From the NCBI RefSeq assembly GCF_009931435.1, contig NZ_CP043414.1: a stretch of 64,000 nucleotides of DNA. One strand, written 5' to 3'. Positions within the stretch are counted from its first letter, which is position 1; every line of letters starts with the position of its first letter. The translations under genes were made by a program, and so were the position numbers. The stretch is from Escherichia coli (GTDB lineage Bacteria; Pseudomonadota; Gammaproteobacteria; Enterobacterales; Enterobacteriaceae). The notes below the pieces were generated by a model. The model was not told the DNA's origin, did no database searches, and worked only from the letters and a program-made list of their open reading frames with translations. This document shows, piece by piece, positions 9,257-62,919 of this stretch.

Positions 9257-10687
9257 TTACAATAACCATTCCACAGGCAATATCGACGCCAGTCTGACCA
9301 TAACCCGCTTCCAGAAACTGGTAGCGGGTTCTTTTTTGAGAACAATTTCTTTCTTTGCATGACGATCAACCCAGTTGATCCGCCCCCACCTGTCCAGACG
9401 GAGCTGCCAGGCCGCATCATACTGGCTCTGAATAAAGCGTTTATCAATTAACTGTGCCAGCGTTTCGCTCTCTATCACGAACCCCATTTCAGTATTGAGC
9501 AATGTCGAACGTGGATCGAAATTGAAAGAGCCAATAAACACCGTTTTACCATCGATGCTAAAGGTTTTAGCATGCAGGCTGGCACCGGAATTACCGGTTA
9601 TGCCGCGATCGTGTAACGTACTACTTTGTTCACGCGTCGGCTTGAGTTCATATAACTCCACGCCGTAGCGGAGCAATTTTTTGCGCCAGCGCGCGTATCC
9701 GGCATGGACGACAGCAACATCGTTAGCGGCAAGAGAATTGGTTAGGATCGCAATCTTTACCCCTTTTCTCACCATCCGTAAGAGTTGCGCCACACCTGCG
9801 CGTGTCGGTACAAAATAGGAAGAGATAATATCGATGCGTTCACTGGGTGAGCCCATGATATCGAACAGGCGCTGCGGTAACAGTGAATGCCGTTTTGCCT
9901 TGCCTTCCCCTTTCGCCGGATCATCACTTAATAAACGTGTTTTCGCCCAGATAAGCGGCAACGTTCCATCAACCAGATGATTTATAAACGGGCTGGATTC
10001 CATTTTGCGTAAATAACGATGCGTCATGGCATCGTCATGCCAGGAGGCGGGTAACTCGATGCGATCCGCCATTTCACCTTCCGGGACATCCAGCACCTGC
10101 TGTAAGGGTGAAACCGATTTACAATACCAGTAGCGGGCGAAATCATCGGCAACGTCCTCTACAACTGGTCCTATTGCCATGACATCTAAATCCGAAAAAA
10201 GTGGCTCTTCCCCTGCACCAAAATAGGCATCACCAATATTTCGTCCCCCCACCAGAGTCACCACACCATCGACGGTGAAACTTTTATTGTGCATACGGCG
10301 ATTGAGACGGGAAAAGTCGGTGATATAACCAAGCGGACGTAGCAGTCGAAACGAAAAAGGATTAAAAAGCCGGACTTCAATGCGGGGATGACTGTCAAGC
10401 AAGCGTAAAATGTCGTCAAGTCCGGGTGTATTGTTGTCGTCCAGCAACAAACGGACGCGAACGCCACGCTTTGCTGCGGCTAACAGGGCGGAAAACAGTA
10501 ACCGACCCGACATATCGTCCTGCCAGATGTAATACTGAACATCCAGCGTATGCTCTGCCATTTCGGCCAGACGATACCGGGCGGCAAACGCATCCAGACT
10601 TTTCTCCAGAGGGAAAAGGCCACACTGACCGGGATGTTGCGAACACAGTGGCAGCACCGCGCTCGCCAGCCGGGGCAAATCATTCAT
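9257..10687 (-). CDS. clsC: Cardiolipin synthase C (phospholipase D family) ClsC/YmdC
   Basis: ORF 9257..10747; start placed at ATG giving [17 protein letters not shown]... (putative lipoprotein signal); two PLD-type HxK motifs (HNKSF, HAKTF). Exact start uncertain. Confidence 0.85.
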
Positions 10688-11213
10688 CTCCTTGTTGGGT
10701 AAGGAGTCTTTCGTAGAGGTGGGCGTTTTCTTCATCATAACAGACAAAGTATACCTGTTCGGGTAAAGCGTGACGGGTAATAAATTCTGAAACGGTTTTT
10801 ACTGCGATTTCAGCCGCTGCCGCACGAGGGTAACCATAAACCCCAGTACTAATTGCAGGAAAAGCCACTGACGTATAGCTGTTTGCCGCCACCAGTCGTA
10901 GGCTATTGAGATAGGCATCCTGCAAAAGCTGGTCTTCGTTTTGTTCACCACCACGCCAGACTGGCCCGACGGTGTGCACTACGGCTTTAGCGGGAAGATC
11001 GCCTGCAAGCGTAATAACGGCATGCCCCGTAGGGCAATCGCCCTGCTGTTGCCTGACTTTTAAACAGGCATCCAGAAGGGCCGGACCCGCTGCGCGATGA
11101 ATGGCTCCATCGACGCCGCCGCCTCCCATTAATGACGGATTAGCCGCATTCACAATCACATCAACGGCCAGTTTGGTAATATCACCCTGCACAACATGAA
11201 TACGCGTTTTCAT
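10680..11213 (-). CDS. ymdB: Macrodomain protein YmdB (O-acetyl-ADP-ribose deacetylase)
   Basis: 177-aa [28 protein letters not shown]...; macro-domain signature; stop overlaps clsC start (ATGAATGA), implying an operon. Confidence 0.92.
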
Positions 11214-19381: not shown

Positions 19382-19469
19382 GGTGAGGTGTCCGAGTGGC
19401 TGAAGGAGCACGCCTGGAAAGTGTGTATACGGCAACGTATCGGGGGTTCGAATCCCCCCCTCACCGCCA
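19382..19469 (+). tRNA. serX: tRNA-Ser (anticodon GGA), serX-type
   Basis: 88-nt sequence GGTGAGGTGTCCGAGTGGCTGAAGG...CCTGGAAA...GGTTCGAATCCCCCCCTCACCGCCA with long variable arm and encoded CCA. Confidence 0.95.
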
Positions 19470-19935
19470 TCTTTAAAGAAGAGCTCGTACGAAAGTACGG
19501 GCTTTTTTTTCGTATATTGCACACACCGGGGGGATGAGAAGCCCCGACAGGGGTTCGACAACTGGCGACAGCCAGTTGGACAGACCGTGAACGCAGTGAG
19601 CGGGCTGCCCGCAGGGCGAGCGAAGCGAGTCAATCCCCCCCTCACCGCCATCTTTAAAGAAGAGCTCGTACGAAAGTACGGGCTTTTTTTTTGTATATTG
19701 CACACACCGGGGGGATGAGAAGCCCCGACAGGGGTTCGACAACTGGCGACAGCCAGTTGGACAGACCGTGAACGCAGTGAGCGGGCTGCCCGCAGGGCGA
19801 GCGAAGCGAGTCAATCCCCCCCTCACCGCCATCTTTAAAGAAGAGCTCGTACGAAGGTACGGGCTTTTTTTTCGTATATTGCACACACCGGGGGATGAAA
19901 AGCCCCGACCGGGGTTCGACAACTGGCGACAAACT
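19461..19935. repeat. About 2.6 tandem copies of a ~181-bp unit, each carrying the serX 3'-terminal ~20 nt plus the terminator hairpin
   Basis: The string tcaccgccatctttaaagaagagctcgtacgaaagtacgggc recurs at about 19461, 19642 and 19823; copies 1 and 2 are near-identical, copy 3 is truncated and diverged; each unit also has an 8-bp palindrome caactggc-gaca-gccagttg. Confidence 0.85.
19482..19510 (+). terminator. Rho-independent terminator of serX (gctcgtac-gaaa-gtacgggc + T8)
   Basis: Hairpin followed by 8 T residues immediately 3' of the tRNA; repeated in each downstream repeat unit. Confidence 0.75.
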
Positions 19936-21392
19936 CAATCATCATCCTTGCAGTTGATAAGAATTTCTGCCTCTTTTACAACTATCTTATTACGTCCGGT
20001 TTCTTTCGCTTCATATAGTGCATTATCAGCCATTCGATAGATTTCATTCGGATTTAACGCACTTCCCTGAGTCACCACAGCGCCAATGCTAATCGTCACT
20101 TTTTGCGGTATGGCGTATTCAGGATTATCGCCTGTCAAACGCTCTACATTTGCCCTTATCCTTTCGGCTAAAACTTTCGCGCTTTCAGTATCGGTCTCCG
20201 TCAGCAAGACGCCAAACTCTTCGCCGCCAACGCGTGCTAAAAGGTCATTTGGTCGTATGCTTTTCCCAATGATGCTCACCACTGTTTTTATCACCTGATC
20301 GCCAACCGGATGCCCCCACGTATCGTTAACTTTTTTAAAGTGATCGATATCCATAATCATGACACAATAAGACGTTTTTTGGGCTGATGCTGATTGAGCC
20401 TTCAGTTCATTGAAAAAATAATTCCTGTTAAATATATTAGTTAATGGATCGCGATGGGCAATGTTCTTTGTTACTCGTAGCGCACTGAAAATATGGCACA
20501 TAAATATTACCATAACGGTTAATTTACTGACTACTTCAATAGTGCGGCTAATATACCAAGTGGACACACTATACCTGCTCATAAATAACAGAGAGATATT
20601 ATACAGCACGGCACAGAAAGCAATCACTGATACTCCATTCCAGATATCACAGCGTAAACCATTAAAGTATAGATTAACCAAAAGCAAGATTAACCACATG
20701 AAAATTATTATGGTAACATATGAGGTTTTCCAGACTACCTGACCATTTTCATTTGTTAACTCGGCAATATGTAAACTGTAGTCATCATAATGACTACTTA
20801 GCATGTGAGCAACTGCCGCCCCCCCATAAATAAAAAATAGGCTTATACACAATGTCATTTTTTTGGAAAAAAAACAGCGTTTCTTATTGTTTTCACTAAC
20901 TTTATTCACCAGCGCTAGCAATATTAACATGCACAAACTCATCTGACGAAACAAATAATAAATTGCAATATCATTTTGTACAACGCTGCTTATCAAATGC
21001 CCCTCAATAAATTGCTGAATGATAATGACAGTTTTAACAAAGTAAATCAAACAACTCAGAAACGCTAAACTAAGTATACAGTTTGAAAATTGCACACGAT
21101 CATAAATGAAATACAATTGCATGAAAATAAATGCAACGGTATCGATAAAAAATAAAGCAATCATAACCATTAGATAGGTTGATCGTGGAACAACCTCCTC
21201 AACGGTTGGCTGATTAAACCAACTATTTACCAAAACGAATGCAAGCCCAAACAATAAGCTCACCAATACAGTACTACTAATTCCCAAATAGTCTTTTTCC
21301 ATAAAGCTACACCAATCTGTAGGTTGTAGATCCCTTTCTGTCACTAATAGATATAAGAACTGTACTGTTGTCAATATAAAAATCCACCACAA
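19935..21392 (-). CDS. dgcT: Membrane-anchored diguanylate cyclase DgcT (YcdT), GGDEF domain
   Basis: 485-aa ORF beginning at a TTG codon; first in-frame ATG (MEKDYLG...) would give 455 aa. N-terminal multi-TM region plus C-terminal GGDEF with intact GGEEF motif. AT-rich gene. Confidence 0.88.
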   Translation of the reverse strand: MWWIFILTTVQFLYLLVTERDLQPTDWCSFMEKDYLGISSTVLVSLLFGLAFVLVNSWFNQPTVEEVVPRSTYLMVMIALFFIDTVAFIFMQLYFIYDRVQFSNCILSLAFLSCLIYFVKTVIIIQQFIEGHLISSVVQNDIAIYYLFRQMSLCMLILLALVNKVSENNKKRCFFSKKMTLCISLFFIYGGAAVAHMLSSHYDDYSLHIAELTNENGQVVWKTSYVTIIIFMWLILLLVNLYFNGLRCDIWNGVSVIAFCAVLYNISLLFMSRYSVSTWYISRTIEVVSKLTVMVIFMCHIFSALRVTKNIAHRDPLTNIFNRNYFFNELKAQSASAQKTSYCVMIMDIDHFKKVNDTWGHPVGDQVIKTVVSIIGKSIRPNDLLARVGGEEFGVLLTETDTESAKVLAERIRANVERLTGDNPEYAIPQKVTISIGAVVTQGSALNPNEIYRMADNALYEAKETGRNKIVVKEAEILINCKDDD

Positions 21393-55927: not shown

Positions 55928-56620
55928 ATGCCACATCACATTGTTATTGTTGAAGATGAGCCGGTTACCCAGGCGCGATTACAAACCTACTTCACTCAGG
56001 AGGGGTATACGGTTTCCGTTACGGCGAGCGGTGCCGGGCTGCGTGAAATTATGCAAAACCAGCCAGTGGATTTAATTCTGCTGGATATCAATTTGCCCGA
56101 TGAAAATGGCCTGATGTTAACCCGCGCCCTGCGGGAACGTTCGACGGTGGGTATTATTCTGGTTACCGGACGCAGCGATCGGATTGACCGTATTGTTGGG
56201 CTGGAAATGGGCGCAGACGATTACGTCACCAAACCGCTGGAACTGCGCGAACTGGTGGTACGGGTGAAAAATCTGCTCTGGCGAATCGACCTCGCGCGAC
56301 AAGCTCAACCGCTCACTCAGGACAACTGCTATCGCTTTGCCGGTTATTGCCTGAATGTGTCGCGCCATACGCTGGAGCTTGATGGCGAACCGATTAAACT
56401 AACCCGCGCAGAGTATGAAATGTTGGTGGCATTTGTGACCAATCCGGGCGAAATTCTCAGCCGTGAACGTCTGCTGCGTATGCTTTCTGCGCGCCGGGTG
56501 GAAAACCCCGACCTGCGCACCGTCGATGTGTTAATTCGTCGTTTACGTCATAAACTCAGCGCGGATTTACTGGTAACACAACATGGCGAAGGTTATTTCT
56601 TAGCCGCTGATGTGTGCTGA
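55928..56620 (+). CDS. torR: Response regulator TorR (OmpR family)
   Basis: 230-aa ORF, ATG at 55928; receiver domain plus winged-helix output. Confidence 0.95.
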   Translation: MPHHIVIVEDEPVTQARLQTYFTQEGYTVSVTASGAGLREIMQNQPVDLILLDINLPDENGLMLTRALRERSTVGIILVTGRSDRIDRIVGLEMGADDYVTKPLELRELVVRVKNLLWRIDLARQAQPLTQDNCYRFAGYCLNVSRHTLELDGEPIKLTRAEYEMLVAFVTNPGEILSRERLLRMLSARRVENPDLRTVDVLIRRLRHKLSADLLVTQHGEGYFLAADVC

Positions 56621-57621
56621 TAAAAATAGACCGGACGAAATCCCCCTGGTGACAGCGAGCGGCGGATATGTTCGCGGTCGGCATTTTTCGGCGTCAGGAC
56701 TAAAATCGGTGGGCTGACATTATCAGACACCGATAGTCCCTGTAATTGCCTGATCGCTTGCTCAACCGCCAGTTCCCCCTGCCAGACCATTTGATCGCTG
56801 GCAGCCATGATCACTCTTCCCCGCTTTAGTCCGCGATACACCTGATGTGAAAGATAAAATGACACCACGGTCAGCGGCGTTTTCAGGTTACGCCCTTCAC
56901 CCATTGCCGCCTCTGCCGCAATCGCCGTTCCGGCCACAACGTCGATTTCTGGATGGCGCTCCAACATCTCCTGCAACAGGTTACGCTGGATTTCAATATC
57001 GTTGTCGCCGAGCGCAATATCGACAATACGCACCGGGCTTCCGGCAATGGCGGCGCGGAAACCCTCTACCATCTCCTTACTGCCCCCGGCGTTATCGGGG
57101 CCGGGCATCAACAGCACGTTCAGTGGTTTTCCGTGACTCCATTGCACCAGATATCGCCCTGGTTGATAGCCCATCTGAAACCACGGCACACCAACGCGGC
57201 TTTTCACCTGGGGAGCATCAATAGCATTTACCAGTTCGATCACCGGAAGACTTGCTACCTGCTTTTGCAGGTCGGGAAATGACGTCGTGCTACTTCCGAG
57301 CAAGATGGCCTCTGCACCCCACTGTTTGCACTGGTCGATTTGTGCTTGCTGGGTAGCCAACTGGCTGTAGCCGCCTGCCTCCAGCACTTTTAAATCCACA
57401 CCGTAGCGGCGAGCAGCCTCCTGCATACCATAGTTCAACGATAACCAGTATGAATCTTTCAGGCTGGGATAAAGCGCGCACAGTTTCCATGCGCGTTTGG
57501 CTTTAAGCGGCATAGAGGCTTGCACCGTGAAATGCTGCGCATCATGCCAGCGCAACAAGTTATCAGCCGAAAAACCAGGCCACATGAAAAGGGAAAGAAG
57601 TAACAATAGCAGTACGCGCAT
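56593..57621 (-). CDS. torT: Periplasmic TMAO-binding protein TorT
   Basis: 342-aa ORF with signal peptide ([19 protein letters not shown]); 3' end overlaps torR 3' end by 28 nt (convergent). Confidence 0.94.
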
Positions 57622-57703
57622 GATAGCCTCATCAATAATAAGGCTTTATGCTAGATGCATTCCGCTTTGCGACTCAACCTTTTTCACCTTAAGTACACTG
57701 ACC

Positions 57704-60448
57704 GTGAATTTAACCCTGACCCGAAGACTCTGGATGGGCTTTGCCCTGATGGCGCTGTTAACCCTGACCAGTACCCTGGTGGGATGGTACAACCTGCGCT
57801 TTATCAGCCAGGTGGAAAAAGACAATACTCAGGCATTGATTCCTACCATGAATATGGCGCGCCAGTTGAGCGAAGCCAGCGCCTGGGAACTTTTCGCCGC
57901 CCAGAACCTGACCAGTGCCGATAACGAAAAGATGTGGCAGGCGCAGGGGCGAATGCTCACCGCACAAAGCCTGAAGATTAACGCATTGCTGCAAGCGTTA
58001 CGGGAACAAGGGTTTGACACTACCGCTATTGAACAACAGGAGCAGGAGATCTCCCGTTCGTTACGTCAACAAGGGGAACTGGTGGGGCAGCGTTTGCAAC
58101 TGCGCCAGCAACAACAGCAACTCAGCCAGCAGATAGTCGCTGCTGCCGATGAGATCGCACGCCTGGCACAAGGTCAGGCGAATAATGCGGCAACCTCTGC
58201 CGGAGCGACCCAGGCCGGGATTTACGATTTGATCGAACAACATCAGCGTCAGGCCGCAGAAAACGCACTTGATCGGCTGATTGATATCGATCTTGAGTAC
58301 GTTAACCAGATGAATGAACTGCGCCTTAGCGCCCTGCGGGTGCAGCAAATGGTGATGAATCTGGGGCTGGAACAGATCCAGAAAAATGCGCCAACGCTGG
58401 AAAAGCAACTCAATAATGCGGTTAAAATTCTGCAACGTCGGCAAATACGCATTGAAGATCCCGGTGTTCGTGCACAGGTCGCGACAACGTTAACTACCGT
58501 TAGCCAATATAGCGATTTGCTGGCGCTGTATCAGCAGGACAGTGAAATCAGCAATCACCTGCAAACTCTCGCCCAAAATAACATCGCCCAGTTCGCGCAG
58601 TTTAGTAGCGAAGTCAGTCAACTGGTCGACACCATTGAGCTGCGTAATCAGCATGGCCTGGCGCATCTGGAAAAAGCCAGTGCACGCGGGCAATACAGCC
58701 TGTTATTGCTGGGGATAGTTTCTCTTTGCGCACTGATTCTGATCCTCTGGCGCGTGGTTTATCGCTCAGTCACGCGTCCCCTTGCCGAACAAACGCAGGC
58801 GCTGCAACGACTGCTGGACGGTGATATCAACTCCCCTTTCCCGGAAACCGCTGGCGTGCGGGAGCTGGACACCATCGGGCGGCTGATGGATGCGTTTCGC
58901 AGCAGTGTTCATGCACTGAATCGCCACCGCGAACAGCTGGCGGCGCAGGTCAAAGCGCGTACAGCTGAATTGCAGGAGCTGGTGATAGAACACCGACAGG
59001 CACGGGCGGAAGCAGAAAAAGCCAGCCAGGCAAAATCGGCGTTTCTGGCGGCGATGAGCCATGAGATCCGCACACCGCTGTACGGTATTCTCGGCACCGC
59101 GCAACTGCTGGCAGATAACCCCGCACTTAATGCCCAGCGTGATGATTTGCGGGCAATTACTGACTCTGGTGAATCGTTGCTGACCATCCTCAACGATATT
59201 CTCGATTATTCGGCTATCGAAGCAGGCGGCAAGAATGTTTCGGTCAGCGATGAGCCCTTTGAACCGCGCCCGCTGCTGGAAAGTACCCTGCAATTAATGA
59301 GCGGACGGGTGAAAGGTCGTCCGCTTCGCCTGGTAACTGAAATTGCCGACGATGTACCGACTGCGTTAATGGGCGATCCGCGGCGTATTCGTCAGGTTAT
59401 AACCAACCTGTTGAGCAACGCCCTGCGTTTCACCGACGAAGGGCACATTATCCTGCGTAGTCGCACTGATGGCGAACAATGGCTGGTCGAAGTGGAAGAC
59501 AGCGGCTGCGGTATTGATCCCTCGAAACTGGCTGAAATCTTCCAGCCATTTGTTCAGGTTAGCGGCAAACGCGGCGGCACCGGGCTGGGGCTGACTATCA
59601 GTAGCCGTCTGGCCCAGGCGATGGGCGGCGAACTCAGCGCCACCAGCACGCCGGAGGTTGGAAGCTGTTTTTGTTTACGCTTGCCGTTACGTATTGCCAC
59701 GGCACCCGTGCCAAAAACAGTCAATCAGGCGGTGCATCTGGACGGTTTACGTTTGCTGTTAATTGAAGATAACCCGCTAACCCAGCGAATTACCGTTGAG
59801 ATGCTGAACAACAGTGGTGCGCAGGTCGTTGCTGTTGGCAATGCCGCGCACGCGATAGAGACGTTGCAAAATAGCGAACCGTTTGCTGGGGCACTGGTGG
59901 ATTTTGATCTGCCGGATATCGACGGTATTACCCTTGCCCGACAACTGGTACAGCAATATCCGTCGCTGGTTTTGATTGGCTTTAGCGCCCATGTCATCGA
60001 CGAAACGTTGCGCCAGCGTACCAGTTCGCTATTTCACGGGATTATCCCTAAACCGGTGCCGCGTGAAGTACTCGGTCAGTTACTGGCGCACTATCTTCAA
60101 CTGCAAGTCAATAACGATCAACCGCTGGATGTATCGCAACTCAATGAAGATGCTCAGTTGATGGGGACGGAGAAGATCCACGAATGGCTGACATTATTTA
60201 AACAACATGCCCTGCCGCTTCTCGATGACATCGACATTGCCCGCGCCAGTCAGGATAGCGAGAAAATAAAGCGTGCTGCGCATCAGCTAAAAAGCAGTTG
60301 TTCGAGTCTGGGAATGCGTAGCGCCAGCCAGCTATGCGCACAACTGGAGCAGCAGCCATTATCTGCCCCCCTTCCACACGAAGAAATTACACGCAGTGTT
60401 GCCGCTCTGGAAGCATGGTTGAATAAGAAAGACCTGAACGCGATTTGA
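57704..60448 (+). CDS. torS: Hybrid sensor kinase TorS (HAMP, HisKA/HATPase, receiver, HPt)
   Basis: ORF 57497..60448; start placed at in-frame GTG 57704 ([20 protein letters not shown]...) giving 914 aa; phospho-acceptor motif [13 protein letters not shown] start is inferred. Confidence 0.9.
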
Positions 60449-62706: not shown

Positions 62707-62919
62707 TTGTCCCGTAAAATGACAGGAATTGTCAAAACCTTTGATCGCAAAAGCGGCAAAGGATTCATTATCCCCTCCGACGGTCGTAAAGAAGTCCAGG
62801 TCCATATTTCCGCATTCACTCCCCGCGACGCAGAAGTGCTTATACCAGGATTACGCGTGGAATTTTGCCGCGTAAATGGCCTACGCGGACCAACAGCGGC
62901 AAATGTTTATCTCTCTTAA
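62707..62919 (+). CDS. cspH: Cold-shock-like protein CspH (divergent CspA-family paralogue)
   Basis: 70-aa ORF (M)[21 protein letters not shown]; first codon is TTG, with an in-frame ATG 4 codons downstream; divergent from cspG. Confidence 0.88.

Follow-up and report, generated by a model that had tools for sequence, protein, structure and literature searches.

Two start codons have been proposed for the Escherichia coli gene torS. In K-12 the gene (b0993, 1053434-1056178) is annotated with a GTG start codon and a 914-aa product, whilst in 1996 the start had first been assigned, according to Carey et al. (2019, eLife; PMC6814406), to an ATG codon 30 nt downstream. Carey et al. reported that a PtorS-(GTG)lacZ translational fusion produced no beta-galactosidase whereas the (ATG) fusion was active. 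They term the ATG 'experimentally confirmed', whilst discussing both the GTG/ATG ambiguity and the missing Shine-Dalgarno sequence. The GTG-lacZ fusion would have exchanged the native downstream codons for those of lacZ. According to the same paper, the spacer between torT and torS contains the promoters of the two genes, an IscR site that they share and the attachment site of phage HK022, and two torS transcription start sites (TSS1 and TSS2) have been mapped there. Going by the text of that paper rather than its figure, the core of attB would lie at ~57672-57695 of the DNA analyzed here, and TSS2 would be at G/A 57700/57701, 3-4 nt before the GTG.

For clsC (ymdC), the tetracycline ribosome profiling (TetRP) data of Nakahigashi et al. 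(2016; PMC4909307) contain a '-57 ATG' signal that corresponds to ATG 10735 in our coordinates. The level of ClsC is reportedly higher when clones carry the adjacent ymdB gene, for which a 2021 review invoked 'an unknown mechanism'. The title of a more recent paper (Sawasato & Bogdanov 2024, BBA) describes the ymdB product as unnecessary for ClsC specificity.

The DNA studied here, a 64,000-nt stretch of an E. coli genome that we refer to as the window, matches 1.05–1.11 Mb of the K-12 chromosome at 95–98% identity and in reversed orientation. A sequence-only reading of the window had drawn attention to the starts of torS, dgcT, cspH and clsC. From ORF geometry, annotation, conservation in the population and across genera, and Shine-Dalgarno energies, all of which are observed or computed, we infer the codon actually used by the ribosome at each gene. 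The start questions that arise are already present in the literature or in public annotation, and the sequence itself adds no novelty to them. The matter is one of routine gene-start bookkeeping in a well-known region, narrowed to a choice between two nearby torS starts and between two clsC starts.

Results

The features relevant to the four genes are collected in Table 1.

Table 1 Genes, candidate starts and related features in the window
Feature	Position	Strand	Description
torT	56593..57621	-	Periplasmic TMAO-binding protein; ATG at 57621
torS	57704..60448	+	GTG start in annotation; 914-aa hybrid sensor kinase
torS alternative start ATG	57734..57736	+	904-aa product; lacZ-active in PMC6814406
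torS ORF upstream extension, non-coding	57497..57703	+	69 codons in frame
torT-torS divergent spacer	57622..57703	.	82 nt
TTA codon holding the long torS ORF open	57689..57691	+	TAA in K-12
dgcT	19935..21302	-	Annotated ATG 21302; 455 aa in the window
dgcT ORF extension	21303..21392	-	30 codons; TTG 21392, TTG 21374
cspH	62707..62919	+	TTG 62707; 70 aa
clsC, K-12 start	9257..10678	-	TTG 10678; 473 aa
clsC candidate N-terminal extension	10679..10738	-	20 codons within the ymdB 3' end
ymdB	10680..11213	-	Macro-domain protein; final 20 codons overlap the candidate clsC extension

The ORF listing bears out the statement of the sequence-only reading that other starts are available to dgcT, cspH and clsC, and these are in frame. 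Pfam domain boundaries separate none of the candidate starts in the four genes, and public annotations truly disagree only on clsC, by 20 codons. Scoring of ribosome-binding sites had been suggested as a check. Clear Shine-Dalgarno sequences precede cspH TTG 62707 (TAAGGAA, 5-6 nt upstream, -6.1 kcal/mol) and clsC TTG 10678 (AAGGAG, -10.6 kcal/mol), but no usable sequence is present at any torS candidate start (-0.9 kcal/mol for the GTG). Calculated mRNA accessibility likewise does not separate the torS candidates (0.42 vs 0.45), and scanning 57300-57900 for promoter and terminator consensus sequences returned no sites and was uninformative. torS has no entry in the TetRP or TRAINSPOTTER supplements; all four genes are absent from TRAINSPOTTER, and the TetRP tables include only ymdC.

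The GTG codon at 57704, which had been proposed as the torS start, is the start in both the nearest PGAP-annotated genome and K-12, and is invariant among 11 Escherichia, Citrobacter and Providencia sequences. Comparative support for this codon is strong, but the proposal missed a real competitor in the ATG at 57734. The gene is divergent from torT and close to torR and torCAD, as it is in Salmonella-like, Edwardsiella-like (P0020) and Serratia-like (P0027) loci. Across 16 sequences representing at least eight lineages, TorS residues 4-10 conform to (T/S)L(T/A)(R/K)RLW whilst the codons differ, and the nine codons leading from the GTG to the ATG are conserved at the protein level (xxSLTRRLW) through many synonymous changes. 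The alignment uses four synonymous codons for Leu5, five for Arg7, four for Arg8 and six for Leu9. At the position of the ATG, 5 of the 16 sequences have a different codon (ATA in C. braakii; CTG in the Salmonella-like, P0020 and Plesiomonas sequences; TTG in P0027), residue 11 being Leu or Ile in these five lineages. All but C. braakii among them start at an ATG that precedes the GTG position by one codon, and in the Salmonella-like gene this ATG is directly preceded by TAA. In K-12 a TAA lies in frame five codons before the GTG, with no further start codon between it and the conserved segment. Since codons 2-10 are conserved as protein and five lineages have Leu or Ile in place of Met11, these alignments favor the GTG over the ATG as the torS start. 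The conserved codons could in principle have a function in RNA or DNA, but the synonymous pattern argues for protein coding.

The choice of start also affects the predicted topology of TorS. Numbered from the GTG, the protein has its hydropathy peak over residues 9-27, and R7 and R8 lie to the cytoplasmic side of this segment. This basic cytoplasmic tail ahead of the first helix is present only if translation begins at GTG 57704; from ATG 57734 the membrane helix would begin at residue 1 and would have no cytoplasmic positive charges. The periplasmic sensor domain of this TMAO-responsive hybrid histidine kinase matches Pfam PF21689 over positions 1-274 of a 275-position profile (E = 8.4e-91) and occupies residues 115-385 of the long ORF, or 46-316 counted from the GTG. 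The topology, the protein-type conservation of codons 4-10 and the replacement of the ATG in lineages that mostly start at an upstream ATG all stand against the proposal that torS is translated solely from ATG 57734, with the GTG and the nine codons following it forming a 5' untranslated leader. That proposal draws on the lacZ fusion result, the mapping of TSS2 and, through the same paper (PMC6814406), the 1996 assignment; ATG is also a stronger start codon than GTG, and a Shine-Dalgarno sequence is missing at both. The active ATG fusion, however, keeps the GTG in frame, and because of this its activity would be compatible with GTG initiation. On balance, we regard exclusive use of the ATG as rather unlikely.

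A GUG codon close to the 5' end of an mRNA is a poor leaderless start, which counts against the GTG. The two codons might instead each serve their own transcript, with the TSS1 transcript yielding the 914-aa protein from the GTG and the TSS2 transcript the 904-aa protein from the ATG. The two start sites flank the HK022 attB and TSS2 is within 3 bp of the GTG (PMC6814406), both codons are conserved within Escherichia, and tetracycline ribosome profiling detected dual initiation signals in many E. coli genes (PMC4909307). Against this, the transcription start sites were mapped only in vitro, and lineages with Leu at position 11 allow no second isoform, so that a 904-aa isoform, if made, would not be ancestral. 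We give a pair of isoforms a low probability.

The longest frame containing torS (57497..60448, + strand; 983 aa) opens with a TTG codon 207 nt before the GTG. The sequence-only reading set this start aside on the grounds that it would overlap the torT promoter region, and in rejecting it was right. The overlap, though, was only partly described: 57622-57703 is indeed intergenic, but 57497-57621 also covers torT coding sequence, as the antisense of codons 1-42. The extension is open in this strain because a single T/A SNP at 57690 removes the stop codon found in K-12, leaving TTA. Among 5426 complete E. coli genomes, the TAA allele is present in 3185 (59%) and the TTA allele in 1592 (29%). Upstream in-frame stops also occur in Citrobacter MGH106, three Providencia loci, and the Salmonella-like, Plesiomonas and P0059 loci. 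Variable sites within the extension are distributed equally over the three codon positions (10/10/10). In two prophage-occupied loci (L007 and L010) phage DNA lies beyond ~21 nt 5' of the GTG, and the ORF there begins at the GTG. The extension is non-coding and its openness is no greater than chance.

A conserved, extended TorS isoform was rejected on this population and cross-genus evidence. Initiation at TTG 57497, or at the upstream GTG 57527, ATG 57584 or ATG 57620, to give an N-terminally extended TorS is already effectively refuted and scarcely conceivable: the frame is open in the window and in the TTA-allele genomes, and the best Shine-Dalgarno-like match of the region belongs to GTG 57527 (AGAGGC, -5.8 kcal/mol), but TAA closes the frame in K-12 and in the majority of complete E. 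coli genomes, the frame is kept in no other genus examined, a transcript would have to run antisense across the start of torT, PGAP annotates nothing there in three listed TTA-allele genomes, and the Cys-/Arg-rich extension peptide resembles no TorS homolog found. GTG 57527 itself falls within antisense torT and is not conserved.

The case for an ambiguous clsC start, for which no detail had been offered, proved well founded. The longest ORF (9257..10747, - strand; 496 aa) has TTG as its first codon. PGAP places the start at ATG 10738 (493 aa), whilst in K-12 it is TTG 10678. This TTG lies 1 nt after the stop codon of ymdB, the gene immediately upstream, and a start codon at exactly this spacing is retained in four lineages. 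In Salmonella junction loci there is no ATG, GTG or TTG downstream of the upstream ATG pair. ClsC, a PLD-type cardiolipin synthase encoded in a ymdB-clsC operon, has a PLD-like domain. A profile of distant ClsC homologs was used to see whether the 20-residue extension corresponds to their 'LPSLExR' linker; the E. coli alignment begins at residue 23 of the longest ORF, one codon before the TTG (residue 24), and other enterics align, weakly, from 2-10 residues upstream of a conserved TRL motif. Two starts are credible, one at TTG 10678, where it is coupled to the stop codon of ymdB, and the other at ATG 10738/10735, within ymdB. It is possible, though we hold the view only tentatively, that E. 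coli ClsC is made mainly from ATG 10738/10735 as a protein of 492-493 aa and that the curated 473-aa K-12 protein is truncated at its N-terminus.

The remaining two genes had been listed as having ambiguous TTG starts, and for neither is this description precise. At dgcT the TTG is merely the mechanical start of the longest ORF (19935..21392, - strand; 485 aa), and the annotated and conserved start is the ATG to which the K-12 annotation maps. This ATG is present in K-12, in E. fergusonii L022 and in L023, and in L023 it is preceded by an in-frame TAA at a distance of 12 codons. Some gene callers choose TTG 21374 as the start, and two gene calls (P0211 and P0217) use another frame upstream of dgcT. 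The MASE4 domain (PF17158; E = 2.1e-64, long-ORF residues 71-304) has a boundary that fits every candidate start. DgcT is a MASE4-GGDEF diguanylate cyclase. Starting at TTG 21392 or 21374 would give it an additional hydrophobic segment; this was rejected, the upstream frame being broken in L023 and replaced by another frame in the gene calls of other strains. The annotated ATG is supported as the dgcT start, and the 30-codon extension is probably a 5' untranslated region.

For cspH the TTG is both the longest-ORF start and the annotated start, the sole alternative being an internal ATG at 62719. CspH has a cold-shock domain preceded by an MSxK N-terminus, and its first codons (TTG-TCC-CGT-AAA-ATG) align codon for codon with those of cspG in the same window (ATG-TCT-AAT-AAA-ATG), both encoding MS(R/N)KMTG, with TTG in cspH where cspG has ATG. 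The TTG is well supported as the cspH start.

Discussion

The reading that we consider probable, if some way from certain, is that torS starts at GTG 57704 and the extension upstream is not part of the gene, that dgcT starts at ATG 21302 and cspH at TTG 62707, and that clsC has two credible starts. Translation of torS from the GTG would produce the 914-aa form of the protein, in which a short cytoplasmic tail containing two arginines precedes a first membrane helix at approximately residues 9-27. Initiation would be independent of a Shine-Dalgarno sequence and probably inefficient, which fits the very low level of TorS described in the literature. ATG 57734 may be used as well, particularly on the short TSS2 transcript.

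The comparative data give reason to re-test the 'experimentally confirmed' ATG, a matter that bears on TorS topology and on quantitative models of the very low expression of TorS and TorT. If the two promoters do make 914- and 904-aa forms, the difference between them would lie in the cytoplasmic tail that bears the arginines. In strains with the TTA allele, automated calling of the longest ORF would give TorS a spurious 69-residue N-terminus.

The discrepancy over clsC can be seen both in public annotation and in the 2016 ribosome-profiling table. It calls for caution in cloning the gene, as a possible start, together with 20 codons, is located within ymdB. Should the upstream ATG be the true start, the rise in ClsC reported for ymdB-containing clones would arise, at least in part, in cis, because those clones carry the true clsC start and the first 20 codons. 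Judging by the title of the 2024 paper, the possibility of a cis effect may have been looked into already.

The torS locus of the window closely resembles that of K-12 (NP_415513.2; RefSeq, EcoCyc and UniProt), with shared synteny of torR, torT, torS and yccM, the same GTG start and protein length, and identity over the first 31 codons of torS. It differs in that the longest K-12 torS ORF already begins at the GTG, owing to the TAA, whilst the TTA of the window yields the misleading 983-aa ORF. Carey et al. (PMC6814406), working on the same locus, concluded in favor of the ATG without comparative data, whereas the cross-genus codons considered here favor the GTG. The TorS orthologs of the Salmonella-like, Edwardsiella-like, Serratia-like and Plesiomonas loci have the same ~10-residue tail (xxPSLTRRLW) leading into a membrane helix, but start at their ATG one codon before the E. 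coli GTG position and have Leu where E. coli has Met11. At clsC, the window carries both published candidates, the K-12 TTG at 10678 and the PGAP and TetRP ATG codons at 10738/10735.

Upstream limit of torS

The torS reading frame can be opened at TTG 57497, 69 codons ahead of the annotated start, but this extension is not coding. GTG 57704 lies in frame and gives a 914-aa product, and torS is annotated from the equivalent GTG in K-12 (b0993) as well as in the nearest PGAP-annotated genome. The upstream frame contains stops in Citrobacter MGH106, in three Providencia-labelled loci, in a Salmonella-like locus, in Plesiomonas and in the protein-match locus P0059. Five codons ahead of the GTG, at 57689–57691, the window has TTA where K-12 has TAA. 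Exact 30-mer searches of 5,426 complete E. coli genomes found the TAA allele in 3,185 and the TTA allele in 1,592, and no annotated feature lies over the TTA-allele 30-mer in the three TTA-allele genomes listed. Variation across the ten codons ahead of the start is equal by codon position (10/10/10 variable sites). The sequence-only reading had thought the start most plausible at GTG 57704 rather than at the beginning of the open reading frame, as the annotations and the stops in other genomes bear out. Its added point, that the extension overlaps the torT promoter region, holds for the intergenic spacer, but the beginning of the torT coding sequence is overlapped too. The observation is real but ordinary, and the GTG call matches existing annotation.

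Features around the start of torS (window positions)
Feature	Coordinates	Strand	Description
torR	55928–56620	+	Gene order around torS
torT	56593–57621	−	Divergent neighbor of torS
torS, longest ORF	57497–60448	+	983 aa from TTG
torS ORF extension, part 1	57497–57621		Antisense of torT codons 1–42; first 42 of 69 extra codons
torT–torS spacer	57622–57703		82 nt; covered whole by the remainder of the 69-codon extension

The order of genes here is torR, torT, torS, yccM, and the 3' ends of the convergent torR and torT share 28 nt (56593–56620), as in K-12. The window as a whole aligns in reverse orientation with E. coli K-12 MG1655 at ~1.050–1.114 Mb (95–98% identity). The best match to it in the 5,426 complete E. 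coli genomes has 99.3% identity, indicating a non-K-12 strain. E. coli RMDEC465 (loci L003/L004), the closest genome around torS, has neither pgaABCD nor dgcT between phoH and serX and has IS4 adjoining yceK, so collinearity is lost between the window and its nearest relative in the collection.

Choice between GTG and ATG in torS

The literature start is the ATG at 57734, the original 1996 assignment, which gives a product of 904 aa. We compared the 5' end of torS in 16 sequences: the window and five E. coli/Escherichia loci, two from Citrobacter, three Providencia-labelled and five distant loci found via protein matches. None of the 11 sequences from Escherichia, Citrobacter and Providencia departs from the GTG. 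Residues 4–10 read (T/S)L(T/A)(R/K)RLW in 16 of 16, and their codons vary freely (four for Leu5, five for Arg7, including one Lys, four for Arg8 and six for Leu9, with Trp10 fixed), a pattern that marks selection acting on this segment as translated protein. Opposite ATG 57734 in the alignment, C. braakii has ATA, three lineages have CTG and one has TTG. The Salmonella-like, P0020, P0027 and Plesiomonas genes start at an ATG that lies one codon before the GTG position and, in the Salmonella-like locus, directly follows a TAA; K-12 has no further start codon between the upstream TAA and the conserved TorS segment. By hydropathy, the first membrane helix spans roughly residues 9–27 and R7 and R8 face the cytoplasm, and a start at ATG 57734 would delete the cytoplasmic tail ahead of this helix. 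Taken together, the conserved peptide, the non-ATG codons at position 11 and the topology of the tail favor GTG 57704, on balance, as the ancestral and probably the principal torS start.

Translation from ATG 57734 only, which we consider unlikely, draws on lacZ fusions in which PtorS-(ATG)lacZ was active and PtorS-(GTG)lacZ inactive, and on which Carey et al. 2019 called the ATG the confirmed start (PMC6814406). According to the construct descriptions, however, the GTG is still present and in frame in the ATG fusion, 30 nt ahead of the ATG, which leaves the codon behind the activity ambiguous, and in the GTG fusion every native downstream codon is replaced by lacZ; for both reasons we infer that the test is not decisive. 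Retention of residues 4–10 as a peptide, and a position 11 that is not ATG in five lineages, also argue against this reading. Neither codon has a canonical Shine-Dalgarno sequence (PMC6814406), in agreement with our scores of −0.9 and −1.0 kcal/mol at the GTG and ATG. Dual starts tied to the two torS promoters are somewhat less probable still than the ATG by itself.

Start of clsC

Annotations of clsC conflict: K-12 has TTG 10678 (473 aa) and PGAP has ATG 10738 (493 aa), which creates a 59-nt overlap with ymdB. Alternative clsC starts, as noted from the sequence, do exist in frame, with roughly even odds as to which of the two is used.

In favor of the TTG, an AAGGAG Shine-Dalgarno sequence precedes it (−10.6 kcal/mol) and it lies 1 nt after the ymdB stop. 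The same stop-N-start arrangement occurs at locus L048 (TTG), in the L024 type (ATG) and in Enterobacter sp. R1 (ATG), where the ATG tracks a shifted ymdB stop. Four lineages have a start at exactly this spacing (TGA-A-TTG, TGA-T-ATG or TAA-T-ATG; 10678–10682, L024 797–803, L027, L048). Persistence of the spacing even where the stop has moved suggests that clsC is translationally coupled to ymdB. The arrangement is absent in the Salmonella junction loci, which have no ATG, GTG or TTG between the upstream ATG and the conserved clsC domain, and in Pluralibacter, where the TTG is replaced by a CTG alone; both cases speak for the upstream ATG.

Also in its favor, the upstream ATG is present in 7 of 7 lineages examined, though partly forced by conserved ymdB residues. 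In the ymdB segment LLTQQG the first Leu is encoded by either CTC or TTA, and for the second every ymdB–clsC junction seen, across five lineages, has CTT or CTC (10700–10705; L024–L026, L033–L065); the other four Leu codons there would place a stop in the overlapping clsC frame. ClsC homologues that do not overlap ymdB have N-terminal tails of 16–22 residues ahead of the conserved TRL motif; the distant-homologue profile does not reach into the E. coli extension. In tetracycline ribosome profiling, an entry 'ymdC ATG −57' (window 10735) has signal 0/30.1/16.1, against 0/0/5.7 at the annotated start, but ymdB is strongly translated across this position and the authors judged the signal inconclusive (PMC4909307).

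According to a 2021 review (PMC8027125), ClsC is more abundant when clones carry ymdB, 'by an unknown mechanism'; initiation within ymdB, or translational coupling to it, would explain this simply in cis. By the title of a 2024 paper, ClsC specificity does not require the ymdB product. The interest of these ambiguities lies in the clsC start and in the conflict between the torS GTG and the published ATG, both already in the literature.

Starts of dgcT and cspH

The longest dgcT frame opens at TTG 21392 (485 aa), and the annotated K-12 start is ATG 21302. The in-frame TTG proposed as an alternative does exist, and gene callers sometimes choose another at 21374 ('MTTVQF…'). Extension would add a hydrophobic segment and change the predicted topology. 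We reject it: the ATG is kept in K-12, E. fergusonii (L022) and a divergent Escherichia locus (L023), the last has an in-frame TAA 12 codons upstream, and the upstream peptide falls in differing frames in different strains (P0211, P0217). The C-terminal end of DgcT is unlike that of K-12 (455 aa in the window, 452 aa in K-12), and the K-12 alignment stops 34 nt ahead of the K-12 stop, beside the K-12 IS3. A tRNA-Ser(GGA) gene (19382–19469) is followed by ~300-nt direct repeats (19451–19931) reaching the dgcT stop, and K-12 IS3D, ymdE and ycdU are missing near 19382–19935.

The suspected ambiguity in cspH dissolves. TTG 62707 is the first start past an in-frame TAA, is annotated by both K-12 and PGAP, follows a TAAGGAA Shine-Dalgarno sequence by 5–6 nt (−6.1 kcal/mol), and pairs with the ATG start of its paralogue cspG, also in the window, in a codon-by-codon alignment (MS(R/N)KMTG).

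The torT–torS spacer

Spacer blocks ATAAGGCTTTAT and GACTCAACCTTTTT (57640–57685) are nearly constant in Escherichia, Citrobacter, Providencia and Salmonella-like sequences, with diverging flanks, and probably correspond to the shared IscR site and the promoter elements described in published work. The blocks are also similar in the Providencia-labelled loci L013–L015, whose TorS N-terminal region is 71–72% identical to that of E. coli (64–65% for the more distant Salmonella-like sequences); this similarity hints that the tor regulatory genes were transferred horizontally.

In vitro, torS transcription begins at two sites, with TSS1 on the far side of attB (PMC6814406). The T/A polymorphism at 57690, by which the long torS frame is opened or closed, also alters the hexamer 57689–57694 (TTAAGT in the window, TAAAGT in K-12), where the −10 box of the short transcript would sit (TSS2, putatively at 57700/57701), so the two alleles could differ in torS promoter strength.

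The interval between torS and torT is where phage HK022 inserts (Carey et al. 2019, eLife, PMC6814406). The attachment site, 10–30 nt upstream of the GTG with an attB core at approximately 57672–57695, is empty in the window. The spacer is occupied by a prophage in E. coli E69 (L007, 1333–2500) and E. whittamii (L010). In both, a 357-aa lambda-type integrase stops 94 nt short of the torS GTG, homology to the window restarts ~21 nt before it and the torS frame begins at the GTG. This placement of a prophage near torS is the arrangement described in PMC6814406.
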